The notes under the pieces were generated by a model. That model was given only the letters and a program-made list of their open reading frames with translations, was not told the DNA's origin and made no database searches. From Gammaproteobacteria bacterium (GTDB taxonomy: Bacteria > Pseudomonadota > Gammaproteobacteria > Pseudomonadales > Pseudohongiellaceae), in NCBI GenBank assembly GCA_030682575.1, contig JAUXNX010000014.1, forward strand, positions 3,839-67,838: a stretch of DNA of 64,000 bases. Direction: 5' to 3'. How positions within the stretch are numbered: the stretch's first letter is position 1; every line of letters begins with the position of its first letter. Positions 34,872 through 49,716 of this stretch are shown here, piece after piece. The position numbers were made by a program, and so were the translations under genes.

Positions 34872-37800
34872 GTGAAGGGTTACCTCAGTATCTACATGAA
34901 GGTGCTTTGCCTGATGATGGGCGTGTGCCTGACGCCTTCCACTTTTGCGCAGAATGATGATCGCTTCGTGCTGCAATTGAAATGGGAGCACGAGTTCCAG
35001 TTTGCTGGTTATTACGCTGCGTTGTGGCAGGGCTTCTATGCGGAACAGGGGCTGGATGTCGAGATTCGCTCCGGCATGACACCGGATGGCAGATTTCTCG
35101 CACCGGATCAACAACTGCTGCAGGGGAATGCAGATTTCGGCATCGGTGGCATCGATGCCCTCGTGGGTCGCGGCAACGGCCACCGGTTTATCGTCCTGTC
35201 ACCCGTGTTCCAGCGCTCCCCTGTTGCAGTCTTCACACTTGATAGTGTTCCTATTGACTCCCTTGAGCGATTGAGCAGGTTGCGCATAGCGGCAGTAACC
35301 GATGACTACATGCAGGTTCAGATCGAAGCAATGTTCATGGCGGGTGGCATCGACCCGGCCAGCGTTCAGTTCATCGACGCTGAGGCCAGTGTGGATTCGC
35401 TGGTAGCCGGGCTTGCGGACGCGATCGTCACCTACGATATCTCGGCGAGTTTTCGTGCGCGGGAACTCGGTATCGAACTCAACTCTCTTTATCCAGGCGA
35501 CAACGGTATAAATTTCTACGGTGACGTTCTCTATACAACGGAGGAAGTTCTCGCTCGCAATCCAGAGCAGGTCGAACGCTTTGTGCAGGCCAGCCTGCGC
35601 GGCTGGCGCTATGCGCTGGAAAACCGGGAAGAGATTGCCGACAGAATCTCAGTCCAACTGCCACGCTATGCTTATCGCTATGATGACTTCTCTGGTTACA
35701 ACCGACACTTCGCTGGCCTCATCGACAACTACATTCACTACCCGCTGGTACCTCTGGGGCACAATCAACTGGAGCGTTGGCAGCATGCCTATTTCCTTCT
35801 GGAACAACTGGGCCTGATCGAGCAGGGGTTCAGTATTGATGAACTGCTACCCTTGATGGTACGAACTCCGGAAGCAGTCAGCGACGTTGCGGTGTGGGTG
35901 ATAGTCTCACTGGTACTCATTCTGTTGATGATCATGATGGTGCTGGTACGACCTCTGCATCTGCGCCTGCTGGTGGCCGCCCCATTATTGATTCTGATGG
36001 CGGAACAGCTCATTGAGACACGCTACAAGTTTCTGTTGGGAGAACAGCAGCGACTTGAGGTATCTGACCAGCTCAGCACCATTCGTTATCAACTGGAGAG
36101 TCGCCTCTCCAACAATCTCTCGTTGATCAATGGATTGTCGGCGTTTATCGCGTCCAACCCGGATTTTTCACAGTTGGAGTTCGACACCTATGCCGCCATG
36201 GTGCTTGCACGTGAACCTTCGCTGATCAACCTTGCAGCGGCCCCCGAACTCGTTATCCGTTATATCTATCCATTGCAGGGTAATGAAGCCGCTTTGGGTC
36301 TGGATTACAACGCGACCCCTGAGCAACAACAGGCAGTGCAAAGAGTGATACAGACGGGCTCCATGGTGATTGCAGGACCGGTTGATCTGGTGCAGGGCGG
36401 TGCGGCGTTCGTCGGCCGCGCGCCAGTTTATACGATAGATGCTCAAGGTAATCGATTGCTATGGGGTATCGTCTCGGCTCCAATTCCCGTGTCCTATATC
36501 TACAGCGAGACTGATCTGTTCGATCCATCCTCAGGTCTGGAGATTGCCATTCGCGGACGTGATGGTCTCGGTGCCGAGGGCGATGTGTTCTTTGGCCCAG
36601 TGGAGGTGTTCGAAAATCCTGGCACTGTGACCATGCCTGTCGTGCTTGGGGGCGGTTCCTGGCAGATTGCTGCCCATGCCTATCAGGGGGAGGCCACCAC
36701 TGAGCCTGGGATACTGCTGCTGCGATTTGCCAGTCTGATCGCCGCCATGCTGATCATGTCAGGTATCTATTTTCGTCACCGGACGGTCCAGAAGGAGCGC
36801 GCTTACGAGCAGGTCATTTTCCGTAACGAACAGTTCCTGCGGGAAGTGGAAACAGTCTCGCGGGTCGGTGGCTGGCGTCTTGACGCAGATGGTGTGTTTA
36901 CCGAAGTGTCACGGCAGTTCATACAGATCATGAATCTGCCCGCCGATCGTAATCCTGCATCGCTTGCGGACATCTCCGAATTGTTCTCGGAGGAAACCGG
37001 TGCCGTGCTCAGGTTGTTGCTTGAGCGCGCACAATTGCGTGGTGATGGTTTTGACACTGAATTGCGTTTGCAGCGTCGCGATGGCGAGCACGTTTGGCTG
37101 CACATCCGCTGTGAAGTGGTCGAGCTTGCTTCAGAGCGGCGCGAACTGGTCGGAGCAATTCAGGACGTCACACAAGCCAAGGAGGCGGACAGCCTGATTG
37201 AATATCAGGCTAACTTCGACGCGCTCACGGGGCTGGCCAACCGTTCGCTGTTCCGCGACCGGCTCGACAATGCGCTTGCCATGGCCAGACGCAACAGCAC
37301 CAAACTGGCGGTACTGTTCATCGACCTCGACAACTTCAAATCCGTCAACGATAACCTCGGTCACGATGTGGGCGATGAAGTGCTGATAGAGACATCCCGG
37401 CGCATACGCAACTGTGTGCGTGAAGTGGACACGGTTGCGCGCTACAGTGGTGATGAATTCATTGTGGTACTGCGCGATGTATTCTCGGAGTCTGCTGTCT
37501 GGCGCATCGTGGACAACATCGTGGCCGCCGTGGGTGATGCCTACACCCTGCGTACGCATCAGATTTACTGTGGCGCGAGTGTGGGAATTTCTTTCTACCC
37601 GGACGATGCGAATGACGCCGATACCCTCATCATCAAGGCTGATCAGGCCATGTATGAAGTGAAGAAATCCGGACGTAATGGCTGGCAGTTCTATACCGAT
37701 GAGATGCAGAAACAATCCGAACGTCGCCACCATTTGTTCAACGAACTGGTTACTGCATTGAACCAGGGTGAGTTGACTGTGCATTATCAGCCAATCAAGT

Positions 37801-38495
37801 GTCTTTCCACAGGTCTGATCAGTGGCTGCGAGGCGCTGGTGCGCTGGCGCAGGTCGGATGGGACCTACGTGCCACCGGACACGTTCATTCCGCTTGCCGA
37901 GGAGAGTGGTCTCATTATTCGTATCGACTATCTCGTTCTGACATCCGCCCAGCAATTCATTCGCGCATTGAACGCAGAGCTTGGTATTCAGATAGGACTC
38001 TCGGTGAATGTCTCGACGCGGCTGTTGTACATGCGTGACGAATCAGCGCAAGCCTGGTTTTACGCGATCAAGGCGCCGGGCAACACACCAATGACGGTTG
38101 AGATTACGGAGCGTGTTCTCGTCGAGGATGCGACCCGTGCCCGCCATGTGCTCGACGAACTCAATACGGCGGGTGTCAGCATTTCCATCGATGATTTTGG
38201 TACGGGTTATTCAGGGCTCAGTTATTTGTCCCGTTTCCCGGTGCAGGGGATGAAAATAGACCGATCCTTTGTCGCCAAGATCGGCAAGGTACACACAGAA
38301 GAAGCGTTGATTGAAACCATGCTGTTGATGGCGGCAAAGCTCAATATAAAAGTGGTAGCAGAGGGGGTGGAAACGCAGCAGCAACTCGACTTCCTAAGCA
38401 ATGCGCATTGTCACTATGTGCAGGGATACTTCATCGGTAGACCCATGCCGGCAGAGGAATTTCGAGACTATCTCATCTCCACTCTGGTGTGGTGA
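34872..38495 (+). CDS. Multi-sensor c-di-GMP enzyme: periplasmic SBP(NMT1-like)-TM-TM-CHASE-TM-PAS-GGDEF-EAL
   Basis: 1207 aa. The start is GTG 34872 or ATG 34896, which gives a signal peptide. The NMT1/SsuA-like SBP has QLKWEHEFQFAGYYAA. The CHASE-like block is GLDYNATPEQ...GPVDLVQGGAAFVGRAPVY. The PAS is followed by a GGDEF with an I-site and variant A-site (REVD-TVARY-SGDEF). The EAL looks intact (EALVRW, DDFGTGYS, KIDRSF, AEGVET, QGY). Confidence 0.85.
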   Translation: MKGYLSIYMKVLCLMMGVCLTPSTFAQNDDRFVLQLKWEHEFQFAGYYAALWQGFYAEQGLDVEIRSGMTPDGRFLAPDQQLLQGNADFGIGGIDALVGRGNGHRFIVLSPVFQRSPVAVFTLDSVPIDSLERLSRLRIAAVTDDYMQVQIEAMFMAGGIDPASVQFIDAEASVDSLVAGLADAIVTYDISASFRARELGIELNSLYPGDNGINFYGDVLYTTEEVLARNPEQVERFVQASLRGWRYALENREEIADRISVQLPRYAYRYDDFSGYNRHFAGLIDNYIHYPLVPLGHNQLERWQHAYFLLEQLGLIEQGFSIDELLPLMVRTPEAVSDVAVWVIVSLVLILLMIMMVLVRPLHLRLLVAAPLLILMAEQLIETRYKFLLGEQQRLEVSDQLSTIRYQLESRLSNNLSLINGLSAFIASNPDFSQLEFDTYAAMVLAREPSLINLAAAPELVIRYIYPLQGNEAALGLDYNATPEQQQAVQRVIQTGSMVIAGPVDLVQGGAAFVGRAPVYTIDAQGNRLLWGIVSAPIPVSYIYSETDLFDPSSGLEIAIRGRDGLGAEGDVFFGPVEVFENPGTVTMPVVLGGGSWQIAAHAYQGEATTEPGILLLRFASLIAAMLIMSGIYFRHRTVQKERAYEQVIFRNEQFLREVETVSRVGGWRLDADGVFTEVSRQFIQIMNLPADRNPASLADISELFSEETGAVLRLLLERAQLRGDGFDTELRLQRRDGEHVWLHIRCEVVELASERRELVGAIQDVTQAKEADSLIEYQANFDALTGLANRSLFRDRLDNALAMARRNSTKLAVLFIDLDNFKSVNDNLGHDVGDEVLIETSRRIRNCVREVDTVARYSGDEFIVVLRDVFSESAVWRIVDNIVAAVGDAYTLRTHQIYCGASVGISFYPDDANDADTLIIKADQAMYEVKKSGRNGWQFYTDEMQKQSERRHHLFNELVTALNQGELTVHYQPIKCLSTGLISGCEALVRWRRSDGTYVPPDTFIPLAEESGLIIRIDYLVLTSAQQFIRALNAELGIQIGLSVNVSTRLLYMRDESAQAWFYAIKAPGNTPMTVEITERVLVEDATRARHVLDELNTAGVSISIDDFGTGYSGLSYLSRFPVQGMKIDRSFVAKIGKVHTEEALIETMLLMAAKLNIKVVAEGVETQQQLDFLSNAHCHYVQGYFIGRPMPAEEFRDYLISTLVW

Positions 38496-38556
38496 TTCAG
38501 GGCTCACCTTCAGCATAAATTCTGTGTTATCTTCGCCTCAAAAATATGGTGGCAAG

Positions 38557-40911
38557 ATGATATCAAGACCTGCAAGACACTGGCTTCCACTGGCGATGTT
38601 GTGTGTAGGCAGCGATGCCTTTTCTCAGCAGGGTGCAGTTGCCCCCGCTCCTCTTTCCGCTGCGCAAAATCCCGTTGTGCAAACTCGCATTGAAGAAGTC
38701 ATTGTCAGTGCGCGTCGCCGTGACGAAGACAGTCAGCAGGTTGGCCTCACGCTGACATCAGTGGGTCACGAAGAACTGCAACGGGGCTTCCTGCGGAATC
38801 TTCCCGATCTTGCGAGCAGTTTGTCGAATGTCGAACTCTTCGATGATTACGGCGGGCAGGGTCTGCCCGTATGGGTAATCCGCGGCGTCGGTCTGCAGGA
38901 CTTCAACGCCAACAATACACCGACCGCTGCTGTGTATGTGGATGAGGTATATCAGAGTTCCTCCGTTCAGGGTGGCAGTGGTTTGTTCGATACCGGGCGG
39001 GTTGAAATCATCAAGGGGCCGCAGGGCGGGCTTTATGGTCGCAATACCAGTGGAGGCGTGGTCAGGCAACTCACTCGGCGTGCGAGCCTGCAGGGCAACG
39101 AAGGATATGTGAGCGCTGCGACCGGTAGTTGGGATGACCAGTCGATCGAGGCAGCTACCAACCAGATGCTTTCGGAAACGTTGGCAGTTCGTCTTGCCGG
39201 ACGCATCAATCGCAGTCAGGACGCCTGGCAGACCAGTATTCCCTCCGGGAAGACGCATGGCAAAAAGGATACATGGGATCTGCGCTCGTGGTGGCTGCTG
39301 GAACCGTCTGAGCGCTCTCGATTCGAACTGAAGTTGTATGGTGGTGAGAATGATTCGGAGCTGCCGCTCGTTCGCTCCATTGGTCTCTACGATGCCACTG
39401 GGGGTTTCTGCACAGCCGTTCTTGCAGGGCGACGCGACGATGCCAACTGTCTTAACTATGCGGGTCTGGTAAATGTTCTCACGGGTGCTGACACGCCCTC
39501 CCTCTCGCCATCGATCCAGAATCGCAATGGTTCCACATCTCTTTCCAGTCCATTGAATCGTCTTGATAACAGTCATGTCGGCAGCACACTGATGTTTACC
39601 ATGGATACTGCATGGTCGGTGCTGGGATCGCCCCAGTTACAGGCGATCAGCAATGTTGAAAATTTCGACTATGGTCTGAGTTTCGACTATGACGGTTCAG
39701 GTGCGGAGCTTGGCCATCAGATCACCAGTAGTGAAATCAGGACTGTCTCTCAGGAACTGCGGTTGGTTTCTACAGCTCAGTCAGCCTTGAACTGGCAGAT
39801 CGGCGCGCTACTCAGTCGCGAGGAATTCGTCGAGGACAGACAGTTTCGTCTACAGGACAATATTCCGGTTGGTCTGGTGCACGGACAGCTCGACTACGAG
39901 CAGGTGACCCGATCTCGTGCAGCCTATGCATTGGCCGATTACACAATCGATGATCGCTGGTCGGCCACCGCGTCGCTGCGTTATACAAAGGAATGGAAAA
40001 CTTATCGCGACGGCAGTGTGCGCGCTCCGGCATTTCCACCGCCCTTCGATGTGGTCGTGAGCAATCTCAATGGTGATTACTCGCTGGGTAGTCGCTGGTC
40101 CGGTGCCTTGGGGCTGAACTGGCAGGTAAGTGACAACACGCTCGTCTATTCGTCACTGTCGCGCGGTTTCAAGGCTGGGGGGTTCTTCGGCGGTTTCATC
40201 TTTGATCCTGCCGAGTTTGCCCCCTACAAGGAAGAGACCGTACTGGCATGGGAGAGCGGGTTCAAGATGCAGCGTGCCGATGATCGTCTGCGTTTGAATG
40301 CCGCTGTGTTCTATTACGACTATCGCGATGTGCAGGGTTTTGCCAATGTCGAGACTGGTCCGACCGGTGGTGCCAGTCTTGTCCTGGAGCGTCTCACGAC
40401 ATTGGGCGATGGTGAACACTCCGGAGTGGATGTTGATCTGATGTGGCTGCCGCATGATGGCTGGATCGTCGCAGCCAGTCTGGGCTATCTCGACGCCCGC
40501 ATCAACAGTGGTGGTGGCACAACGCTCAACATTCTGAAACAGGTAGTCAGCACTGAGGGTGAGCGAGCGTATGCTCCACACGTGAGTGGCAGTTTCGCCC
40601 TGGGTAATGTCCGTCAGATATTCGACGGTTTCATGTTGGAGATTGGTGCGTCGTGGCATTATCGCAGCGACTTCTCAGGCACGTTGGTCTCGCCAGTGGA
40701 GAAAGCAGTCAGCAGTCTTGATGCTTATGCGTTGATGGATGCATATGTGACACTGACCCCTGCGGAAGGTAGCTGGTCACTTTCTCTACTTGGGAAAAAT
40801 TTGCATAATAAAGTGTATTCTCCTCGCAAGGTATACGATTCACTTGGCAGTTATGTCGAGATAATGGGACAACCGCGCACATGGGCTCTTCAGGCTCGAT
40901 ACAATTGGTAG
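38557..40911 (+). CDS. TonB-dependent outer-membrane receptor
   Basis: ORF 38401..40911. The likely start is ATG 38557 (MISRPARHWLPLAMLCVGSDAFSQQ), giving a signal peptide. It has a plug domain (EEVIVSARRR, IRGVG, VYVDEV, IEIIKGPQGGLYGRN). The C-terminus ends in an aromatic residue (...RYNW). Confidence 0.85.
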   Translation: MISRPARHWLPLAMLCVGSDAFSQQGAVAPAPLSAAQNPVVQTRIEEVIVSARRRDEDSQQVGLTLTSVGHEELQRGFLRNLPDLASSLSNVELFDDYGGQGLPVWVIRGVGLQDFNANNTPTAAVYVDEVYQSSSVQGGSGLFDTGRVEIIKGPQGGLYGRNTSGGVVRQLTRRASLQGNEGYVSAATGSWDDQSIEAATNQMLSETLAVRLAGRINRSQDAWQTSIPSGKTHGKKDTWDLRSWWLLEPSERSRFELKLYGGENDSELPLVRSIGLYDATGGFCTAVLAGRRDDANCLNYAGLVNVLTGADTPSLSPSIQNRNGSTSLSSPLNRLDNSHVGSTLMFTMDTAWSVLGSPQLQAISNVENFDYGLSFDYDGSGAELGHQITSSEIRTVSQELRLVSTAQSALNWQIGALLSREEFVEDRQFRLQDNIPVGLVHGQLDYEQVTRSRAAYALADYTIDDRWSATASLRYTKEWKTYRDGSVRAPAFPPPFDVVVSNLNGDYSLGSRWSGALGLNWQVSDNTLVYSSLSRGFKAGGFFGGFIFDPAEFAPYKEETVLAWESGFKMQRADDRLRLNAAVFYYDYRDVQGFANVETGPTGGASLVLERLTTLGDGEHSGVDVDLMWLPHDGWIVAASLGYLDARINSGGGTTLNILKQVVSTEGERAYAPHVSGSFALGNVRQIFDGFMLEIGASWHYRSDFSGTLVSPVEKAVSSLDAYALMDAYVTLTPAEGSWSLSLLGKNLHNKVYSPRKVYDSLGSYVEIMGQPRTWALQARYNW

Positions 40912-40938
40912 CGTGTAGGAATTTTCCTACACGCTACC
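40907..40938 (+). terminator. Hairpin overlapping the TBDR stop codon
   Basis: ggtagcgtgtagga attt tcctacacgctacc is a 14-bp perfect stem with a 4-nt loop. No T-tract directly follows, but AT-rich DNA does. Confidence 0.5.
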
Positions 40939-41402
40939 AATTATGCTTCCGTATTGCGATTTGGTTGTCTTCAGAAAAAGCACTCTGAAATGTGAAAAAC
41001 CCATTTTTTTCAGAGTATTTCTTCCGTTTTTGAAATGTATCAGGTCTCCTTCAATTACAAATCCGTGCTCTTGTTCTGTTCCAGAATCTCTTCAAAAATT
41101 CGCCCGCCGCAGTTTCTCTTTGTGAACCAATCATGTTGTAACACCAACGCTTCCAGGATTCTGTAACTATTCCTGGTGTATCGTATTATCATGCCTGCGT
41201 TGAAAAACTTTTCAATCCCGCTTCAGCCTGAACCAGATCCGGCGTCGAAATCTTCAGTGTCTTCTGTTTCAGGTGCTAGCCATCGCAACATTCACTGACT
41301 GGCACATTGCCAGACCCTGTCACTGACCCGCGCAGCGACCCATGTTGTGATTCGAACTTCAAAACCCACCATCATCTGAACTGCAAGCTTAGGAGCAATA
41401 CC

Positions 41403-42257
41403 ATGGAACTGCGCAAAACTGTCGACTCAGACGCCCATATCAACCGTATCAAAAGTTTCCCGATGCCGATGAGTCCCGGGCTGTACAAAGTATTCGAGCA
41501 AAGCGAGGAACAGCAAAAACTCGCCGTGCTGAACAGAACCGTCAGAGAGAAACTCGGTGAAGATTATCAATTGAAGACGTATTGCGGAGAGGAAGTACTC
41601 GACATCAGTGAGGCGACCTTCGACGCTCTGGCAATCTGCTACAAGACCGTGTTCAACGAAAGCTGGGGAGAATCCTGGACAGAGAGCTCGGCGAAACAGG
41701 AAATCAAGGACAGCCTGCGCTGGGACCCGAACCGGATTCCCTTGCTTTCCCTGCTGTACAAGGGCGAAGACATCATCGGTTTCTGCTGGGTGCTGCTTCT
41801 GGACAGGCAGGCCCTGAGCATGGAGCGTGATATGCCCTGGGAGCTGTCAGATGCCGAGAAGGCAAACGGCATGGCCATTTCCGGCTACTGGATGGAAGAG
41901 GTGGTCAAGAAAGACAAGATCATGTTCATCAAGGAGCTGGGTGCCTTGAAGGAACATCGCCAGAAGGTGTCGCCGTTCCTGTCCATACCGCTTTTTGAGA
42001 GAGCTGTGAAGTTGGGCTATGATGTCGCCTTTTTGTGGACCAACGTCTACAGCAAAGCTTTCAAATGGGGGCTTGGCGTCGGATTCTCTCCGGTGCACTT
42101 CTTTATCACCAATAATCTGTTGCTCATGTACGGAAGCGTCAAGGGCTCGCTGGATACACTCAAGGCGGTAGTAGAAGCGTCATTCAGCAAACAGAGTCAG
42201 TACTTCATGATAAAGAACATCAACAAGTACCTGCTCAAAGGCGAAACAAGGAATTGA
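41403..42257 (+). CDS. Atypical GNAT-fold acyltransferase-like protein (unclassified)
   Basis: ORF 41307..42257. The credible start is ATG 41403, 7 nt after aggag. The product is 284 aa. GNAT-like elements are FNESWGESWTESSAKQEI, IIGFCWVLLLD and IMFIKELGALKEHRQKVSPFLSIPLFERAVKLGYDVAFLWT. The canonical Q/R-x-x-G-x-G/A loop is not obvious. Confidence 0.45.
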   Translation: MELRKTVDSDAHINRIKSFPMPMSPGLYKVFEQSEEQQKLAVLNRTVREKLGEDYQLKTYCGEEVLDISEATFDALAICYKTVFNESWGESWTESSAKQEIKDSLRWDPNRIPLLSLLYKGEDIIGFCWVLLLDRQALSMERDMPWELSDAEKANGMAISGYWMEEVVKKDKIMFIKELGALKEHRQKVSPFLSIPLFERAVKLGYDVAFLWTNVYSKAFKWGLGVGFSPVHFFITNNLLLMYGSVKGSLDTLKAVVEASFSKQSQYFMIKNINKYLLKGETRN

Positions 42258-42267
42258 TCCATAGCGT

Positions 42268-44364
42268 ATGAACTACATTTTCGTGCCCAATGCCATCGTG
42301 CTGATCCTGCTGGGCCTGTATACATGGCGGCAGAATCCCGGACGGCTGTCACAGTGGTACCTGGTGACAAACGTAGCAGTGGCAATATGGGCACTGTGTT
42401 TTCTTGCGTTGCATGAACTCCAGGCCGTGATACCGATCAACCCGGTATCACAGGTGCAGCTTGTCACAGCGCTGGTATTTGCCAACGGTTTTTACTACAC
42501 GAGCGTGCTCTACCCGAATCCGGAGAGCATGCCTGGCAGGATCATCAATGCCATCAACGCATTGGTCATGCTGACGTTCACGGTTCTAGTGCTGTTCACC
42601 GACTATGTCTCACGGGCAGTCCTTGAAGAAGGTGTGGTGGTATTCGTCGACGGTGCCGGGTATCTATTCTACTCACTCTATCTGGTGCTGCTGGGAACAC
42701 TGACCATCGTGAACCTTGTGCGCAGCTATCGGCGCTATCCTGAATACAGGATACGAGTCGCCTATATGCTCACCGGACTCGGATTGTTCATCCTGATGGC
42801 AATCATCTTCGACCTGGTGCTGGTACTCATGGGTAATTATGAATTGCTGGTGGTAGGTCATCTGGGTTCGGTATTTCCTTCGTTGTTCTTCGCGTATGCG
42901 ATTACAAAGCACGATCTGCTCGATATCAAACTCGTGGTACAGCGCAATACTGCCAAGATCATTGTCGCATTGCTGGTGGTGACCACACTGGTTCTCGCCT
43001 TCGAGTTATCCTTGATAAGTCGACCATGGAGTCTGCTGTTCATCTGCTTGACGGGTGTGTTCTGGGCATTTGTAGCAGGACCACTTGAGGTCAAGCTCGT
43101 GACAACAGCCAGACGCAAGTTTGTGCGCAACTGGTACGATCCAGAAGGAATTCTGAATCGCCTCGCCGGCAAGCTGGAGCTTGAGAAGAATCGCCGTGAC
43201 ATCTTCCGGAAGCTTATTGAGGAGCTTGATGACACTTTCGAGCTTGAACGTGCTCACTCCATCGTGGCGGTGCGTGGAGATGACGACCGCCTCATATGCT
43301 ATGAGTTGCTTGGTGGTGCAGAGCACAATCTGCAGAGCGAGCTTTCGGTGGACGATGAGTTCATGGAGGAGTGCAGGAACAGAACGGGGCCGACTGAATT
43401 GACCACGTTCAGTGCAGGCACTTTGCAGCGATTTGCAGCACTGGGTCATACTGATCCGGAGAAATCCCTGGTAGTCCCGTTCTTCTCCCCCGAGATACTT
43501 GAAGGCGTCCTGGTGCTGGGCGAGCGCAGCAATCAGGATGCGTTCAGCCAGAAAGATCGGCAGTTTCTGATGCGTCTCGTCAGCTACGTGTCGGCGATTC
43601 TTTATCGCCTGACTCCTTTCGAGAAACTCGAAAAACTCTACTTTGAAAACCAGAGACGCCTGCACGAAGCAGAAATACAACTGGTGCGTGGCGAAAAGAC
43701 CCGGGCGATCGCTCATGCGACCCGTCAGGCCCATCACGAAATCAGAACGCCGCTGAACATCATTCGTCTCGGAGCAAGACGCATCAAGGACATGGAGTCT
43801 GCGGAAAAGTACAAGGAGATCATCGAGGCGCAGATCGAGAGGGCCATGGAAATTGTGGAGGAAACCCTGGCGATCACCGATGCGGAGGGCGGAGAGGAAG
43901 ATCGGTATCAGTCTGTCGATATCAATCAGGTTGTGACCCGATGTCTGCGGCTGCTGCCAGAGTCCATGCATGAAAGGGTGCTGGTGCTCCAGGAAGATCT
44001 GCACGTCGTACAGGGAATCCCCAGTGAAATGCAGGTGCTGTTTTCCAATCTGTTGAAGAATGCGGTGGAAGCGATGCCTGAGCGCGGTACCCTCACTGTC
44101 CGTACTTTCGAGGAAAGAGGAGAGATCGTGGTTACCATCGGCGATACCGGCAATGGCATTGCTCCGGAGTTGCGGGAAAAGATCTGGGAGCCCTACTTCA
44201 GTGGCAAGGTGACAGCAGCAGGCAATATGACTGCGGGCAGAGGCTGGGGGCTCACGATATGCAACAGGATCGTGACAGAGCACAAGGGAACGATTCAATT
44301 CACGAGCGATACGGGTAAGGGGACGACGTTCACTGTGCGGCTGCCTTACCAGCTACTTGCGTAA
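42268..44364 (+). CDS. Polytopic (7TM-type) GAF-like sensor histidine kinase
   Basis: 698 aa with the ATG 10 nt after the GNAT-like stop. The first ~270 aa form 7-9 hydrophobic helices with short loops (HisKA_7TM-like). A GAF-like middle follows. The H-box is AHHEIRTPLN, the N-box LLKNAVEA, G1 GDTGNGI and G2 GRGWGL. Confidence 0.8.
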   Translation: MNYIFVPNAIVLILLGLYTWRQNPGRLSQWYLVTNVAVAIWALCFLALHELQAVIPINPVSQVQLVTALVFANGFYYTSVLYPNPESMPGRIINAINALVMLTFTVLVLFTDYVSRAVLEEGVVVFVDGAGYLFYSLYLVLLGTLTIVNLVRSYRRYPEYRIRVAYMLTGLGLFILMAIIFDLVLVLMGNYELLVVGHLGSVFPSLFFAYAITKHDLLDIKLVVQRNTAKIIVALLVVTTLVLAFELSLISRPWSLLFICLTGVFWAFVAGPLEVKLVTTARRKFVRNWYDPEGILNRLAGKLELEKNRRDIFRKLIEELDDTFELERAHSIVAVRGDDDRLICYELLGGAEHNLQSELSVDDEFMEECRNRTGPTELTTFSAGTLQRFAALGHTDPEKSLVVPFFSPEILEGVLVLGERSNQDAFSQKDRQFLMRLVSYVSAILYRLTPFEKLEKLYFENQRRLHEAEIQLVRGEKTRAIAHATRQAHHEIRTPLNIIRLGARRIKDMESAEKYKEIIEAQIERAMEIVEETLAITDAEGGEEDRYQSVDINQVVTRCLRLLPESMHERVLVLQEDLHVVQGIPSEMQVLFSNLLKNAVEAMPERGTLTVRTFEERGEIVVTIGDTGNGIAPELREKIWEPYFSGKVTAAGNMTAGRGWGLTICNRIVTEHKGTIQFTSDTGKGTTFTVRLPYQLLA

Positions 44365-44880
44365 TTCCTTGGCCCAGCGTGCTTCTCGCTCGATCAGGAT
44401 TTCCCGCAGTATTTCCGCTTCCTTGTGAATGACTATACGCTTGAGAATTGTCAGAAGCTCGTTCTCTTCAAAGGGTTTGACAATATATCCGGAGGCGAGC
44501 CCCAGTGTGGGATCCTTGGCCAGTTGCAACCGCTCCTTGTCGCTGTATGCGGAAAAAATCACGATAGGAATGTGACGCTTGAAGGGGCTGCGCCCTTCCT
44601 CACTACGCAGTCTCTTGATGAATACTTCACCATTCATTCTGGGCATCTGCCAGTCGAGCAGAATGCAGGCGACGCCGTTACTGAGGAAATTGAAGCCACG
44701 TTCATGCGTCTTCAGGATGGCAAATGCGTGCTCGCCATCATAGGCAGGAATCGCTTGATACAGCCCGGTTTCGTTGATGATTTCCACAACGAGATCCGAT
44801 TGATCTCTGTCATCTTCGACAACCAGTACCAATGGTTTGGGTTTCATGGTCACGATCTTGGCTGCAGAATATTCTGCCAT
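44353..44880 (-). CDS. Stand-alone CheY-like response regulator with short C-terminal helix
   Basis: 175 aa. If the start is ATG 44847 (MKPKPLVLVVEDD), it is 164 aa. The acceptor is ILLDWQMPRMNG, with FSAYS and IVKPF. Its 3' end overlaps the convergent kinase gene by 12 nt. Confidence 0.8.
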   Translation of the reverse strand: MAEYSAAKIVTMKPKPLVLVVEDDRDQSDLVVEIINETGLYQAIPAYDGEHAFAILKTHERGFNFLSNGVACILLDWQMPRMNGEVFIKRLRSEEGRSPFKRHIPIVIFSAYSDKERLQLAKDPTLGLASGYIVKPFEENELLTILKRIVIHKEAEILREILIEREARWAKELRK

Positions 44881-45272
44881 GCCCTCCAGGTTTTTCTGAA
44901 AACGAATACCGGCCCCTGAAAGATGCCTGTCAGCAATGCAAAGGGCAGCAGTACCAGAGTAATCAGTGTATTGGCAAGAATCACCAGAAAGGGGAAAGGC
45001 TCGCGCTTGTATTCTGTCTGTATCTGGCTGTTGGTCAATGCTACCAACTCAATCGGTTTCGACTTCATGCGATGAGTAAGAATGGCAGAAGTAAACTTGT
45101 TGTAGCTGCGTAATGGATAGCGCTTCCACTGTATGATCTGCAACCGATTGAGATCTATCCAGTTTTCATAAACAGCCAGAAGTTTGAAAAAAACGCCGCC
45201 AAGAACTCCGTAACATACGCTCCAGACGAGAATCAGAGGAAAGAGTACGATGGTCAGTAATCCGTTAAGCAT
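44850..45272 (-). CDS. Small integral membrane protein (hypothetical)
   Basis: The track ORF 44850..45278 begins at TTG; ATG 45272 is more likely. It has an N-terminal TM (LLTIVLFPLILVWSVCYGVLGGVFF) and a C-terminal hydrophobic hairpin (FPFLVILANTLITLVLLPFALLTGIF). It sits directly upstream of the CheY-like gene. Confidence 0.4.
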   Translation of the reverse strand: MLNGLLTIVLFPLILVWSVCYGVLGGVFFKLLAVYENWIDLNRLQIIQWKRYPLRSYNKFTSAILTHRMKSKPIELVALTNSQIQTEYKREPFPFLVILANTLITLVLLPFALLTGIFQGPVFVFRKTWRAWQNILQPRS

Positions 45273-45475
45273 AGTCAAACTCCATGTTTGCTCTTGCGTG
45301 GTACTGCACTTCGTAAATCCAGAATTTGTTTATCATCTCTGTGTTTCTGATTTTCCCTGACACTGTTATACACTAACGCCTGCCTGCCCTGATCTGCAAC
45401 CACTGTGATCGGGTAATTGGCGTTATTGTCCCGGTTTTCACCGAATGAACATCAACGCATCGCAGAGATTTGTGC

Positions 45476-47047
45476 ATGAAAACCAATACGCTCGTCAAAG
45501 GTCTTCTAGCGTTGGCGTATTCGGCGCTCTATGGCCTTATGACATGGCTGCTCACCGATAGTGTTAATGACCCGTTGTTCCAGGTTTTGTTTCATATCGC
45601 ATATATAGCATTCATCTGTCTGACCTACGATCTGTTCTACCCCTATATGCTGATGGGTTTCAAGTCATCGCGTGGCAATCTGCCGATAAATCGACTTGGC
45701 TCCTTTGTCGAGACCATTAATGCCATGCATGAGCACACCGATCTGGATTCGTTGCTGGGTTTTGCATCGAAGGCGCTGACAGATCTGCTGAGAGTTGAGA
45801 GCACCACGATCTTTGTGTGCGATATTCTTGCCGGAGTGCCCGATGCAGCGCAGAAGCAGATGATTCAGTGGCGCCCTGAAAGTCTGGTGAGAAGTGATGG
45901 TGTGGATGGTATCGGCAGCGATAGTGCGGAAACGCGTATTCTTGATGAGACCAGTGCTCTTCAACAATATGCTCGACAACACAGGGGAGTATTGCTGGCG
46001 GCACGAAGTCCCGACGTAGTTGCGCGGGAGATGCACGAGTACAATGCCGAACTTGTTGTATCCGCTCATAGCGAGCAGCGACTTCTGTGCCTGCTGCTTC
46101 CAGGACGACGACTTCCTCACAGCAATCACAATGACGATGAACTGCCCCTTTTGCAGTTCTTCAGCAGACAATTGAACATCGCTATTGATCGCATTGATGC
46201 GTTGCGTAAACAGCAGGTCAGAAAGGAGGCTGCCTACGCGGAGAAGATGGATCTGCTTGCCAGTCTTAGTGCGAATATTGCACATGAGATGCGTACGCCG
46301 TTATCGGGAGTGCGTGCAAGTATCAGTGGCGTGGAGTCCTATTTGCCTGATTTGCTGGAGGGATATCGCCATGCCAGCGCACTGGAACCAGCACGTTTTG
46401 TCCCCATTCGAACGGAGCATGTGGAGATGCTGGAGAACACGCCAGCCCGCATCAAGGCGATGGTGGACCAGGCCAATACGGTTATCGATCTGTTGCTGGT
46501 CAATCTGCGCAATCGCACACTGGACCGTTCAAGTTTCACTGAATGTTCAATGGCCATCTGTGTTGTCGAAGCAGTGCAGACCTATCCTTTCAAGCGCAAC
46601 GAGCGGCAGAAGGTGAGCCATGCAATCGAGCAGGATTTCGTGTTTCCCGGCGTTCCCGCGATGATGATCTATGTTCTGTTCAACCTTCTCAAGAATGCGC
46701 TCTACAGCGTGGAAGCCGCCTGCAAGGGAGGCATACACATTGCGTTGGAGAAAGACGCGAAAAGCAATAGAGTAGTCTTCACGGATACTGGTCTCGGAAT
46801 TGATGCTGATGCGATTCCGAGAATATTCGAAGGATTTTTTACTACCAAGAGTGAAGGCACCGGAGCTGGGCTGCCGTTCTGCAAGCGGACGCTGAACAGT
46901 TTTGGCGCGCAGATTCATGTCAGTTCGGTGAAAGGGGAATACACAACATTTACCCTGGAATTTCCGGTATCGGCAACATCATCTCTGAAAACTGTTGACG
47001 ATACAGTGTCTAGTGCAGAAATTTCTGCCCCCCAGCCGGTGCGCTGA
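45476..47047 (+). CDS. Intramembrane-type sensor histidine kinase (2 TM, GAF-like, HisKA-HATPase)
   Basis: The track start is TTG 45470; ATG 45476 is more likely. Two N-terminal TM helices are joined by a loop of about 7 aa. A GAF-like region follows. The H-box is ANIAHEMRTPLSGV and the N-box LLKNALYS. G1 is FTDTGLGID, followed by FTTKSEGTGAGLPFCKR. Confidence 0.8.
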   Translation: MKTNTLVKGLLALAYSALYGLMTWLLTDSVNDPLFQVLFHIAYIAFICLTYDLFYPYMLMGFKSSRGNLPINRLGSFVETINAMHEHTDLDSLLGFASKALTDLLRVESTTIFVCDILAGVPDAAQKQMIQWRPESLVRSDGVDGIGSDSAETRILDETSALQQYARQHRGVLLAARSPDVVAREMHEYNAELVVSAHSEQRLLCLLLPGRRLPHSNHNDDELPLLQFFSRQLNIAIDRIDALRKQQVRKEAAYAEKMDLLASLSANIAHEMRTPLSGVRASISGVESYLPDLLEGYRHASALEPARFVPIRTEHVEMLENTPARIKAMVDQANTVIDLLLVNLRNRTLDRSSFTECSMAICVVEAVQTYPFKRNERQKVSHAIEQDFVFPGVPAMMIYVLFNLLKNALYSVEAACKGGIHIALEKDAKSNRVVFTDTGLGIDADAIPRIFEGFFTTKSEGTGAGLPFCKRTLNSFGAQIHVSSVKGEYTTFTLEFPVSATSSLKTVDDTVSSAEISAPQPVR

Positions 47048-48062
47048 TGTGATCTCTATACGGAACGATGTCTTCGGGTCGATACTTGCGGAGCAGATTC
47101 TTTGCAACTTCAGCTGGTAGCAGCGCACAGTAGTAGGGGGCGCGATCCGAAATGCGCTCGGCAGGCACATAGTATTTTTTCCAGTTCGCAAGAATCCCAG
47201 CATCTATTTTCTCGTGATCATTGGTCACGTTGAACAGAGGCATCATGGCGCCTTTGTTCAATGCTTCGATCAGGTCCTGAGGCGCCTGTACCTCTACGCA
47301 TTGCTGATGATGGCTGCGTAGTCGGGATTCTGGCAGCACCAGCAATATGGAGACAGTCCCTTTTTCGTCCAGCAGGAAGAAGCCCGAATAGGGTTCGTCG
47401 ATGAGGTAATATTCAGCGACCTTGCGCTTCGCCAGAATCTCCCGGAAATAATTCACGAACTCCGGGTTGTTGATGAAACGACTCTGATTGTTGGCGATCA
47501 CAGGGTCCGTGATCAACTTGAATGTCCTGCTGAAATAATGCTGCTGCAGATTGGCAATGGAGCGGTTGAGTTTTGCTTCGAGATTCTGGTCTTTCTTGCT
47601 GATGTATTGATCGATCAGCCCATCATTGAAGGCCTGCACCGCCAAGTCGGTGTCTGCCTGACCAGTCAGCAGGATTTTCTTTACATAGGGATTGGTCAGG
47701 CTTATGCAGTACTCGAGGCCATTCATTTCCGGCATGGAATAATCCACTACGACAACGGTTGGCGTGGAGAACCGCGCGGGGTTATAGACTTCCTTGTAGA
47801 TCTCGTTGATGTCGATGTGGTTCAGCGTGTCAGAATCGAACGGGCCCGTTTTGTAGGACGAGTAGCAGCGTCGGATCATCTCGATATGCTGGTTTGAAGC
47901 GTTCACATGATCAAGCGCCTGGCTGGCAGACTGGAACAGCCGATAGCTGAGATTACGCCTCAGCAATAGACTGACGGCGTCGAGAAAGTCCGGATCGTCG
48001 TCTACCAGGACTACCTGCGTCGGGTAGTAGAACAGGTGACAGATCGGGAAGTTGATGTCCAT
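47010..48062 (-). CDS. Atypical response regulator, LqsR-like (receiver with insertion + uncharacterised C-terminal domain)
   Basis: 350 aa, with GGAG 8 nt upstream of the ATG. The acidic pocket is VLVDDDPDF. An insertion of about 45 aa precedes the acceptor strand TVVVVDYSMPEMNG (Asp107 by my count). LLTGQAD and YISKK follow. The ~170-aa C-terminal domain has no motif I recognise. Its 3' end overlaps the convergent kinase by 38 nt. Confidence 0.55.
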   Translation of the reverse strand: MDINFPICHLFYYPTQVVLVDDDPDFLDAVSLLLRRNLSYRLFQSASQALDHVNASNQHIEMIRRCYSSYKTGPFDSDTLNHIDINEIYKEVYNPARFSTPTVVVVDYSMPEMNGLEYCISLTNPYVKKILLTGQADTDLAVQAFNDGLIDQYISKKDQNLEAKLNRSIANLQQHYFSRTFKLITDPVIANNQSRFINNPEFVNYFREILAKRKVAEYYLIDEPYSGFFLLDEKGTVSILLVLPESRLRSHHQQCVEVQAPQDLIEALNKGAMMPLFNVTNDHEKIDAGILANWKKYYVPAERISDRAPYYCALLPAEVAKNLLRKYRPEDIVPYRDHISAPAGGQKFLH

Positions 48063-48201
48063 TACGAAGCTCCATGTGTTGAACCTGGGGCTACCTTTCC
48101 CAGCGGCCCTTTTAACAGTGACATTCGACAGTGGCTTTCAGCGGTTGCCTGCGACTGACGAAAGGATGTTACTGGTTAGCCTGTCATGTTGCAAAGTCTT
48201 G

Positions 48202-49620
48202 TCAGAACGTCATTTCCTGGGATAGCAGATGCTCGACCTGGCGGCTGAGCAGTGCCTTGTAATTGACCATGGGCTCATTTACCAGCCAGGTCTTGATGAA
48301 CTCACCGTTGCTGTCGTCCACTACTTCGTTGAATTCTTCCGTGATGAGACGAGTGTCCGCATCGGCCTGAATATAAACTGCTTCGCTGATGATCAGTGTG
48401 CCATCGGGACCCTCTGCGCAGATCTGCCGTGTCAACGCCAGATTCTCGCCTGCCACGGTGTAGCTCTGCTGTTCGAGCGACAGCAGCACCCCAGTCAGCA
48501 GCTCGCCGCAATGCAGCCCGGCCTTGAACTGCAGTGACGGCAGCGATTGTGCTTCAAGCTCGCGTCCCAGCGTATCGGCCAGTTCCAGGAAAAGCAGTGC
48601 TGCGCAAACCGCATGGAAACTGTGATCTTCATCAGTCTGTGCCGCGCCGAATGTAATGAGTATCTCGTCACCCGCGCACTTTTCGATATTGCCGTTGTAT
48701 AGCTGAGTCACCTTGTGAATGTAGAAGTAATAGGTGTTGAGAAGCTCTACGGTCTCCAGCGGTTCCTGTTCATGCAGAGCGGTGCGGTAGTTGCTGATGT
48801 TCAGATGCAGGATGCTGACGATGGTGCTGCCTGGTTTACGGTAGGCAGGGGGTGTCTGCACAGTGACCGGAACTTCCGGCTCTTCTCCAAAAATCACCTG
48901 ACGGTTCTCCGGATCTTCGAGTTCGTAGATCATGCGATTGTATTGACGAATCAGCATGCCCACTTCATCACCCCGGTCGCCATAGGGGCATGGTTCCGGC
49001 TCGCCTTTTCTCACGCTTTGCACGGAAGCGCTCAACATCCGCAATGGGAATGTTATGAAATACTGGGAGATTGCCAGAGTCACGCTCACGCCGGCAAGAA
49101 TCAGCAATGCCAGGGCTGCAAGCATGAAAATAAAATTACGTGTGACCCCTTGTTCGATATAACGCTGGTCAAGATGGATTCTGACATAACCGGCCAATGA
49201 GTCCTGCAATGCAATCGGTGCTACATAACTGCCGAACAGATCAGTGCTGGCAGTCGCAACGGATGCGCCCGAGATGGCAATCACCTGATCGTCAATACTC
49301 AGGATTGCCACCTGAGAGATTGCCGCTTCCCGGGTCAGTTGATTAAGCAAGACGTTCATGCTGATGAGGTCGTTGGCCAACACAAGTTCTGTGGCCAGAA
49401 TGGCCGTTTGCCTGGCAAGGGTATTGCCAAGACTGTCTGCCTGTTGCCGAAGAATGTTCTCGGTTGTCAAATTGGTAACCAACCAGAACACGCACATGGC
49501 CAGTATGACCAGCGCCGAGGTGCTGATGGCGAGTTTCTGTCCGATAGTCAGTTGAGAGGCATGCTGGGCGTAAAGCCTGGACTCGTAGTCCTGGTCTCGT
49601 GACAGGTTATCTATTGGCAA
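48202..49620 (-). CDS. Membrane-bound HAMP / class III nucleotidyl cyclase-domain protein
   Basis: 472 aa with a TTG start (no in-frame ATG before TM1). It has two TM helices flanking a periplasmic segment of about 110 aa. HAMP has GDEVGMLIRQYNRMI. The cyclase homology domain has EKCAGDEILITFG and KAGLHCGELLTG, and later YTVAGENLALTRQI. Where the canonical F.D(I/L).GFT motif should be, I read LHLNISNYR. Confidence 0.7.
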   Translation of the reverse strand: MPIDNLSRDQDYESRLYAQHASQLTIGQKLAISTSALVILAMCVFWLVTNLTTENILRQQADSLGNTLARQTAILATELVLANDLISMNVLLNQLTREAAISQVAILSIDDQVIAISGASVATASTDLFGSYVAPIALQDSLAGYVRIHLDQRYIEQGVTRNFIFMLAALALLILAGVSVTLAISQYFITFPLRMLSASVQSVRKGEPEPCPYGDRGDEVGMLIRQYNRMIYELEDPENRQVIFGEEPEVPVTVQTPPAYRKPGSTIVSILHLNISNYRTALHEQEPLETVELLNTYYFYIHKVTQLYNGNIEKCAGDEILITFGAAQTDEDHSFHAVCAALLFLELADTLGRELEAQSLPSLQFKAGLHCGELLTGVLLSLEQQSYTVAGENLALTRQICAEGPDGTLIISEAVYIQADADTRLITEEFNEVVDDSNGEFIKTWLVNEPMVNYKALLSRQVEHLLSQEMTF

Positions 49621-49716
49621 GATTTGTCTCTTCCGGTGATGTCCGGCAGTGTGGTCGCGCTATGGTTGCGGTGTGATTGTGCGCTTTGGTGGACAAGTGT
49701 AATCAATCGCAGGGGG

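Follow-up and report, generated by a model that had tools for sequence, protein, structure and literature searches.

A GNAT-fold protein family outside the catalogued subfamilies adjoins HisKA_7TM sensors and, in many relatives, a pyruvoyl histidine decarboxylase: a candidate N-acyl-amine signalling cassette

We analysed a stretch of 64,000 nt from a Pseudohongiellaceae contig (JAUXNX010000014.1 of assembly GCA_030682575.1, positions 3,839 to 67,838), hereafter called the window, in which a first-pass annotation had proposed that a GNAT-like enzyme and the membrane histidine kinase encoded just after it form a signal-synthase/receptor pair. The enzyme, X284 (positions 41403..42257, + strand), is a 284-aa protein that is predicted to be soluble, adopts the GNAT fold in its structural model and belongs to an uncatalogued family, referred to here as X; it is a putative amine N-acyltransferase. 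We found that the adjacency of X and a kinase of the HisKA_7TM type is well beyond chance, and that in most lineages other than that of the window a gene for a pyruvoyl histidine decarboxylase (HDC) lies between X and the sensor. These results make functional coupling between X and the 7TM sensor very probable. They also suggest, more tentatively, that X N-acylates a biogenic amine and that the 7TM module senses the product.

The linkage was determined by a scan at one genome per species, which yielded 40 loci: 34 informative loci without HDC, five loci truncated by contig ends and the locus L038. In every one of the 34 informative reference genomes without HDC, X was directly followed on the same strand by the gene for the 7TM kinase, 10-120 nt away. 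Across the 35 informative species-level genomes, the next sensor gene was in every case a 7TM sensor on the same strand. The first-pass annotation had asked whether homologues of X284 co-localise with HisKA_7TM kinases across genomes and had counted homologues that never neighbour kinases as evidence against its idea; the 34 HDC-less loci clearly show the contrary. The adjacency of X and its sensor persists down to 25-40% identity and across genomes whose G+C content (GC) ranges from 25 to 54%. It was also detected in an independent lineage without HDC (L057, GC 32%), where the gene immediately after X encodes a 7TM kinase with 30% identity to that of the window.

On a single metagenome contig (P0061/L046), we observed a 534-aa open reading frame (ORF; L046:638-2242) in which an X-like domain runs on, in the same frame, into the core (HisKA and HATPase_c) of an orthologue of HK525, a second histidine kinase of the window. 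The genes that follow resemble RR350 and the cyclase and stand in the same order as in the window, which indicates that the fusion apparently results from a deletion between X and HK525. We had considered this fusion as Rosetta-stone evidence and downgraded it, given its deletion-like joining to HK525 and its presence on one contig.

In the window, X284 starts with an ATG that is preceded by a TAGGAG ribosome-binding site 8-13 nt 5' of the start, and its TGA stop ends at position 42257. The ATG of the 698-aa kinase stands at 42268, leaving a gap of exactly 10 nt; the gene boundaries and the spacing given at first pass were thus correct. HisKA_7TM (PF16927) was identified at residues 9-220 of the kinase with 30.9 bits, above the gathering score of 28.6, and is followed by HisKA (residues 487-541, 35 bits) and HATPase_c (residues 586-695, 84 bits), which makes the protein a HisKA_7TM sensor histidine kinase. 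Its membrane sensor module (42268..43086, + strand) comprises the HisKA_7TM residues and two further helices up to about residue 273. Hydropathy analysis of residues 1-273 revealed hydrophobic segments, seven of them strong and about two weaker, and a low-confidence model (pLDDT 58, shallow alignment) showed nine helices with one short beta-hairpin loop, in line with the earlier description of 7-9 membrane helices with few exposed loops. A homologue search with the 7TM region recovered just six proteins. The cytoplasmic domain that follows (43189..43602, + strand; residues 308-445) matched GAF_2 at 21.6 bits, under the cut-off of 28.6, so that "GAF-like", the wording chosen at first pass, is appropriate; the kinase of L038 presents clear GAF domains at the orthologous position (51.7 bits). 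The core (43726..44364, + strand) holds the phospho-acceptor/dimerisation and catalytic domains, and it is intact as initially described, with the H-box HEIRTPL, the N-box and the G-boxes evident in the translation. The kinase is non-hybrid, as it has no receiver domain. LuxN was not among its NCBIfam matches, and the protein did not qualify as a LuxN, CqsS or LqsS kinase. In our literature search, HisKA_7TM was mentioned only in domain censuses.

X284 could not be assigned to any family by sequence comparison. It matched no Pfam family at E<=1, no NCBIfam model and no PDB sequence. The sequence models of the acetyltransferase clan (Acetyltransf_1, _3, _5, _7, _10, FR47 and others) did not match it, and neither did those that define LuxI-type synthases (PF00765, Autoind_synth, with its conserved N-terminal R/F/W/E/D/R residues) and N-acyl amino acid synthases (PF13444, Acetyltransf_5). 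The same was true of the family as a whole: none of 50 diverse members matched Pfam at E<=0.01, Acetyltransf_5 and Autoind_synth included, and a profile built from 50 X sequences gave only sub-threshold alignments to GNAT motif A when compared to the PDB. The fold was recovered from structure prediction. An AlphaFold (AF2) model of X284 based on 31 sequences (pLDDT 82, pTM 0.79) presented GNAT topology, with its elements in the order beta1-alpha1-alpha2-beta2-beta3-beta4-alpha3-beta5-alpha4-beta6. When this model was searched against the PDB with Foldseek, 366 matches were found at E<=1e-3, and the best 50 of the 366 were all GNAT-type. The top of the list was occupied by Naa60, FeeM, dopamine/arylalkylamine N-acetyltransferases, PaiA and NatD; agmatine N-acetyltransferase (7ciu) stood lower among the matches listed, and LasI (1ro5), a generic GNAT neighbour in structure, was found at rank 39. 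The TM-scores (about 0.45 for the query, 0.55-0.74 for the targets) and the identities (8-18%) place X284 in the GNAT superfamily and in no particular subfamily. The model therefore gives substance to the loose GNAT signature seen at first pass, and it supports the view that X284 is a GNAT-fold protein fitting no catalogued subfamily, as had been suspected from its sequence.

The motifs that had been singled out at first pass fall where they were expected in the model: FNESWGESW forms the end of helix 70-88, IIGFCWVLLLD corresponds to strand 123-134, and IMFIKELGAL to strand 172-181 (GNAT beta4), which leads into helix 183-203 and the region of the CoA loop. The internal insertion reported earlier is real; it lies between beta3 and beta4 (about residues 135-170) and is conserved family-wide as DMP[WF]..L...K..G....YW. 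The N-terminal extension, initially put at about 90 aa, is in fact about 50 aa long: the first 32 residues are disordered, a well-modelled helix spans residues 35-51, and beta1 begins at residue 55. Where the Q/R-x-x-G-x-G/A pyrophosphate loop of motif A (beta4-alpha3) is expected, X284 has R186-Q-K-V-S-P. This coenzyme A (CoA) loop contains no glycines, does not conform to motif A and differs in length between family members. In a weak profile alignment to 2jlm and 6yga, the X loop falls exactly at motif A, with a one-residue deletion.

No transmembrane segment was found in X284 by hydropathy, which indicates that the protein is probably soluble and cytoplasmic. Its dN/dS (0.04-0.10) reveals strong purifying selection, and the value for the kinase is similar. 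A comparison of 16 X proteins without HDC and 11 linked to HDC identified 24 positions that are conserved in the two groups alike; those conserved family-wide include the polar residues C79, Y80, N85, S87, E90, E178, T213, S217 and Y276, and X284 retains every family-conserved residue. Because these polar residues are kept across the family, they form the pattern expected of an active site. From this conservation, X is probably a catalytically active acyltransferase. We found no residues that separate HDC-linked (n=11) from HDC-less (n=16) proteins, which suggests that the chemistry of X is probably alike with or without HDC.

The X family is small. Among 5.8 billion clustered proteins, we found 47 clusters of X284 homologues, every one of them nameless and all from Pseudohongiellaceae or Pseudomonadales-type metagenome-assembled genomes (MAGs). 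An exhaustive search of 1.84 billion representatives with a hidden Markov model recovered 140 relatives at E<=1e-3 and 46 at E<=1e-30. No X homologues were found among the plasmids of PLSDB. One far relative (P0115, L041:8001-8747; 18% identity, profile E 2e-12) was observed on a contig resembling a conjugative plasmid. It is flanked on one side by TrwC/TraG genes and on the other by an AbiEi/AbiEii pair, lacks a neighbouring HDC or 7TM sensor and probably represents a separate subfamily.

HDC was found between X and the sensor in most lineages other than that of the window, and these distant lineages span GC contents of 25-44%. X is followed by HDC in 11 lineages (L038, L043, L044/45, L048, the P0075 contig, L050, L051/61, L052, L053, L054 and L059/60), and in eight of the ten that could be read past HDC the cassette continues into a 7TM sensor. 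A search of metagenomes conducted from the HDC side yielded four new loci, with X directly upstream in all four and a 7TM sensor downstream in three. The most distant genomic match, L038 (X 33% identical, GC 40%), presents an operon-like arrangement with gaps of 0-15 nt, in which an alpha/beta-hydrolase and an AMP-binding acyl ligase precede X, HDC and a HisKA_7TM-GAF-GAF kinase. The order X, HDC and HisKA_7TM was found in L048 (GC 25%) and in L061 (45 bits), and X, HDC and a 7TM protein in L059/60. In L044/45, the 7TM kinase that follows X and HDC is 43% identical to that of the window, and a TonB receptor gene is divergent from X (Plug and TonB_dep_Rec in L044). The P0075 cassette starts with an OmpR-type response regulator and continues with X, HDC, a HisKA_7TM kinase and a dCache protein. 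L050 presents X and HDC, and L043 presents X, HDC, SDR and MarR genes.

Two of these cassettes include enzymes of lipid type: L038, with its alpha/beta-hydrolase and acyl ligase, and L054. In L054 (L054:460-9941), X and HDC are bracketed by two paralogous HisKA_7TM-SpoIIE proteins, that is, PP2C phosphatases, and downstream of them a 1120-aa protein is encoded in which a thioester reductase (NAD_binding_4) is fused to a class III aminotransferase. This reductase-aminotransferase arrangement could convert an acyl thioester to an amine. The 7TM module is thus kept while the output domain changes, and the simplest explanation is that its specificity has to do with the compounds that X and HDC produce or consume.

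The HDC of these cassettes matched PF02329 at 96-127 bits (127 bits for L038). When aligned to 1hq6 and 1ibt, its residues S73-S74 coincide with the Ser81-Ser82 self-cleavage site, and the DRAE/GQINM block, the residue aligned to Asp63 and the equivalent of Glu197 are all kept relative to the Lactobacillus 30a enzyme. Because the cleavage site and the catalytic residues are intact, the protein is probably an active pyruvoyl decarboxylase, presumably specific for histidine. No HDC was found in the 64 kb of the window, and no acyl ligase or alpha/beta-hydrolase either. L057 constitutes a second HDC-less lineage, and HDC must therefore have been lost from the X cassette, or never been there, at least twice (in the clade of the window and in L057).

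Directly upstream of X in L057, and on the same strand, we observed genes for a 433-aa ATP-grasp enzyme and an unannotated 160-aa ORF (L057:5016-6870). ATP-grasp ligases make amide bonds, and this enzyme could be part of an alternative chemistry. We also observed X-HDC pairs amid ParA/ParB, resolvase and primase genes in L052 (L052:2225-10437), and amid serine recombinase and DprA genes in L059/L060 (L059:4470-6731). These mobile-element contexts suggest that the X-HDC cassette may move horizontally.

Across the cassettes, the parts list comprises a source of amine, sometimes an acyl activator, a GNAT-fold transferase and a membrane sensor, which is what an N-acyl-amine synthase/receptor system would need. 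In such a system, X would move an acyl group from acetyl-CoA, acyl-CoA or acyl-acyl carrier protein (acyl-ACP) onto a primary amine. In most lineages this amine would be histamine, made locally by the HDC encoded between X and the sensor. The N-acyl-amine product would be amphipathic and would be read within the membrane by the 7TM bundle of the kinase, possibly together with the GAF-like domain. The kinase of the window would then phosphorylate RR175, a neighbouring receiver protein, and so feed a network formed by HK525, RR350, a nucleotidyl cyclase and GGDEF-EAL proteins. In the clade of the window, HDC would have left the cassette, and for this reason the amine would have to be supplied from elsewhere in the genome or from outside; this clade perhaps senses or converts amines from other pathways or other organisms.

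We do not attach the same confidence to all parts of this proposal. The evidence leans slightly towards a biogenic amine such as histamine as the acceptor of X. That the product of X is the ligand of the sensor is a tentative proposition, which we take seriously while falling short of favouring it. A long-chain lipophilic product, as opposed to an N-acetyl one, appears doubtful. The broadest version of the proposal is equally speculative: X-HDC-HisKA_7TM might constitute an unrecognised signalling class, with a GNAT-fold synthase of N-acyl-histamine-type autoinducers and HisKA_7TM as the membrane receptor, of which the clade of the window would be a derived form with its amine supply uncoupled.

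Several points weigh against the proposal that X makes the ligand of its sensor. Adjacency does not separate a product that serves as ligand from a sensor that regulates the enzymes. Fatty-acyl enzymes were found in only 2 of about 12 cassettes, and plain N-acetylation is equally possible. A long-chain product, and with it the lipophilic signal envisaged at first pass, is therefore not established, whereas the pairing of X with a HisKA_7TM kinase has stood and now extends to a triad with HDC. No sensor lies close to the X-HDC pairs of L043 and L052. In the window, as in its entire Pseudohongiellaceae-type clade, neither HDC nor an acyl ligase occurs in the cassette or within 64 kb. Donor binding by X is uncertain, since the CoA loop is non-canonical and of variable length. 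Our results on X come entirely from uncultured MAGs that represent a limited range of lineages. Finally, the chemistry itself has to be counted here: we infer the catalysis by X, its amine acceptor, its acyl donor and the role of its product as ligand.

Alternatively, the 7TM sensor might regulate X, and HDC where present, as an output or homeostatic arm, for instance in the detoxification or neutralisation of amines by N-acetylation, while sensing the state of the membrane or envelope, pH, histidine or histamine. Because adjacency gives no direction, this explanation is quite possible, even if we consider it on balance unlikely. Two-component systems are often co-transcribed with the genes that they control, and an OmpR-type DNA-binding regulator heads the P0075 cassette. 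Most of the top structural neighbours of X are plain N-acetyltransferases, which fits neutralisation well, as does the scarcity of fatty-acyl enzymes (just two cassettes). On the other hand, the island of the window lacks a DNA-binding regulator, RR175 being a bare receiver. The classical partners of HDC in acid resistance (antiporter, HdcB and HisRS) are absent from every X cassette. The conservation of the 7TM module across the switch from kinase to PP2C phosphatase is more easily explained by ligand specificity than by common target genes, and X remains with the sensor after the loss of HDC.

It is also conceivable, but improbable, that X acts on or with the signalling proteins themselves, either as a protein-lysine acyltransferase for the kinase or receiver, or as an inactive GNAT-like domain that binds a cytoplasmic ligand (e.g., acyl-CoA) and modulates the kinase. 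The degenerate CoA loop would suit such a role, the top Foldseek matches include protein N-terminal acetyltransferases (Naa60 and NatD), and in P0061/L046 the X domain continues in the same frame into a HisKA and HATPase_c core. This fusion, however, joins X to the core of HK525 in a deletion pattern on a single contig. Moreover, X-HDC pairs exist without any kinase (L043 and L052), and the near-obligate partnership with HDC points to the chemistry of a small-molecule amine.

The direct adjacency of X and HDC in 11 lineages raises the question of whether X is a decarboxylase helper, by analogy with HdcB, which matures pyruvoyl HDC in the hdc operons of Gram-positive bacteria. We consider this very unlikely: X presents a GNAT fold and no similarity to HdcB (hhalign probability 0.15%, BLASTP E=10), it is under strong purifying selection in at least 35 genomes whose cassette is HDC-less, and no residues distinguish HDC-linked from HDC-less X proteins. 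For the clade of the window, such a role is effectively refuted by this lack of similarity and by the persistence of X without HDC. Lastly, GNATs are abundant and often unannotated, and X284 could in principle be an ordinary housekeeping or antibiotic-modifying acetyltransferase next to the kinase by chance; no such match was found in Pfam, NCBIfam or the PDB (a confident match of this kind is what the first-pass annotation had named as decisive against its idea), the family counts only 140 representatives among 1.84 billion proteins, its members almost always adjoin a 7TM sensor and/or HDC, and this synteny and rarity rule the explanation out.

In the window, X284 and its kinase belong to a signalling island of about 17 kb (34872-51780) that includes two large GGDEF-EAL proteins. 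Its gene order, as determined by tblastn, is a TonB receptor and/or GGDEF-EAL gene, X and the 7TM kinase on the + strand, RR175 and orf142 on the - strand, and HK525 on the + strand; past HK525, it continues on the - strand with RR350, the HAMP-cyclase and a PAS-GGDEF-EAL gene. This order is kept down to 37-40% identity in X. The proximal end is formed by a 1207-aa GGDEF-EAL protein with a periplasmic sensor (34872..38495, + strand), whose gene lies directly upstream of X in the clade with 63-74% identity. In the window, a TonB-dependent receptor (38551..40911, + strand) lies upstream of X284, as shown by tblastn synteny; this receptor is present in some clades, and in others the GGDEF-EAL gene directly adjoins X. 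The flanks of the island are ordinary chromosome (parE/parC, thiC, gshB and pilT). Several island-bearing records (L007, L008, L017, L024 and L036) bear the names Klebsiella pneumoniae, Klebsiella sp. or Enterobacteriaceae in their titles. This taxonomy is probably wrong, because their gene content and synteny match other gammaproteobacterial MAGs.

Downstream of the kinase, RR175 (44353..44880, - strand) is a single-domain receiver (Response_reg, 61 bits) that is syntenic in all loci with enough flank, with 49-90% identity, and it is likely the cognate phospho-acceptor of the kinase. Its gene is convergent with that of the kinase, and the two overlap by 12 nt at their 3' ends (44353-44364), an overlap that could couple their expression or termination. 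The next gene, orf142 (44850..45278, - strand), encodes a small membrane protein with two hydrophobic segments; it has no significant Pfam match and is syntenic in all long loci. HK525 (45470..47047, + strand), the second histidine kinase (HisKA and HATPase_c), is also syntenic. Its catalytic core is most similar to LuxN (NCBIfam LuxN_Vibrio, NF041945), with a score of 115 bits against a cut-off of 1550, which indicates that HK525 is not a LuxN equivalog. RR350 (47010..48062, - strand; syntenic) combines a receiver (Response_reg, 45.7 bits) with a C-terminal region of about 190 aa for which no family match was found. It is followed by AC472 (48202..49620, - strand; syntenic), a membrane-anchored protein with HAMP and a class III nucleotidyl cyclase domain (Guanylate_cyc 46 bits; HAMP and SMP_2 weak). 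The distal end of the island is the syntenic PAS-GGDEF-EAL gene (49717..51780, - strand), whose product matched EAL at 159 bits and GGDEF at 62 bits, in addition to PAS.

The 5' leader or promoter region of the X284-kinase unit (41145..41402, + strand) contains the palindrome CCAGGATTCTGTAACTATTCCTGG at about 41154-41177, upstream of a -10-like TATTAT, and predicted hairpins. The DNA of this leader (about 255 nt) is conserved only in the closest clade, L001-L006 and L009 (nhmmer, 181-257 bits). The arms of the palindrome change in a compensatory manner between subclades, from CCAGGA...TCCTGG to GTCATGAC...GTCATGG. RNAalifold predicted 39 pairs in the leader, just three of them with compensatory changes, and the covariation is thus weak. 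A comparison of the 490-nt leader with Rfam found no riboswitch or known RNA. The region may function as an operator and/or a structured 5' untranslated region. Right after the stop of the TonB-dependent receptor gene, we observed a perfect 12-bp inverted repeat (GTAGCGTGTAGGAAttttCCTACACGCTAC, 40910-40939) that is conserved in L001 and L002; it is terminator-like without a T tract and divides the receptor gene from the X-kinase unit.

If the proposed N-acyl-amine system is real, it would provide the first ligand class and biological role for HisKA_7TM, a sensor domain widespread in bacteria and archaea, and the first dedicated biosynthetic route to microbial N-acyl-histamines or N-acyl-amines. 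It would also add a new autoinducer chemistry to the N-acyl-homoserine lactones (AHLs), CAI-1/LAI-1 and autoinducing peptides (AIPs). Its hosts are abundant uncultured gammaproteobacteria of freshwater and marine environments (Pseudohongiellaceae, SAR86-labelled and Pseudomonadales MAGs). Microbial N-acyl-histamines are known from microbiome metabolomics, with no enzyme assigned to them (bioRxiv 10.1101/2024.10.31.621412). Our search of the full-text literature found no description of an X-HDC-7TM cassette. Even without a signalling function, X constitutes a compact, well-defined and easily tested GNAT family that is missing from Pfam and has a strict gene neighbourhood.

Among enzymes of known function, the insect AANAT-type GNATs (8wme and 4fd6; 7ciu for agmatine) share the GNAT fold with X (Foldseek E of about 1e-6, TM-scores of about 0.45 and 0.56-0.6). 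Arylalkylamine-type enzymes N-acylate the primary amine of decarboxylated amino acids, histamine included, and this is the chemistry that the HDC neighbour suggests for X. In contrast to these enzymes, to which it has no detectable sequence similarity, X is without a glycine-rich CoA loop; it carries a beta3-beta4 insertion specific to its family as well as a C-terminal helix, and it is bacterial and linked to a sensor. FeeM (2g0b) and LasI (1ro5) also combine the GNAT fold with non-canonical donor sites; they use acyl-ACP and make N-acyl signals or lipids. FeeM was ranked third by Foldseek (E 3.8e-7, target TM-score 0.66, 16% identity), no better than many other GNATs. Unlike in FeeM and LuxI, the acceptor of X would be a decarboxylated amine rather than an amino acid or S-adenosylmethionine, and the partner of X is a membrane kinase, with no LuxR-type receptor at the locus. 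The hdcP/C-hdcA-hdcB-hisS operon of lactic acid bacteria shares with the cassettes an HDC of PF02329 with its Ser-Ser site and catalytic Glu, but the X cassettes have no histidine/histamine antiporter, HdcB or HisRS.

The closest parallels in locus layout are LuxM/LuxN, CqsA/CqsS, LqsA/LqsS and agrBDCA, in which the synthase gene or genes stand beside a polytopic membrane histidine kinase. These kinases bind a hydrophobic or amphipathic autoinducer inside the transmembrane bundle. The P0075 cassette, with its response regulator, X, HDC and histidine kinase, further resembles agrBDCA in that signal synthesis and sensing would be united in one operon. The first-pass annotation had compared the locus to the first three of these systems, and this comparison holds for the layout and not for homology. 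The synthases concerned (the LuxM/AinS type, the PLP-dependent CqsA and LqsA, and the AgrB peptidase) have folds unrelated to that of X, and the X-linked sensor is a non-hybrid HisKA_7TM (PF16927) protein outside the LuxN, CqsS and AgrC families; the resemblance to LuxN in the window concerns only the catalytic core of HK525, far under the cut-off. The layout of a synthase/receptor locus is known; the novelty would lie in its parts, a GNAT family that no catalogue lists and a sensor domain that is still an orphan.

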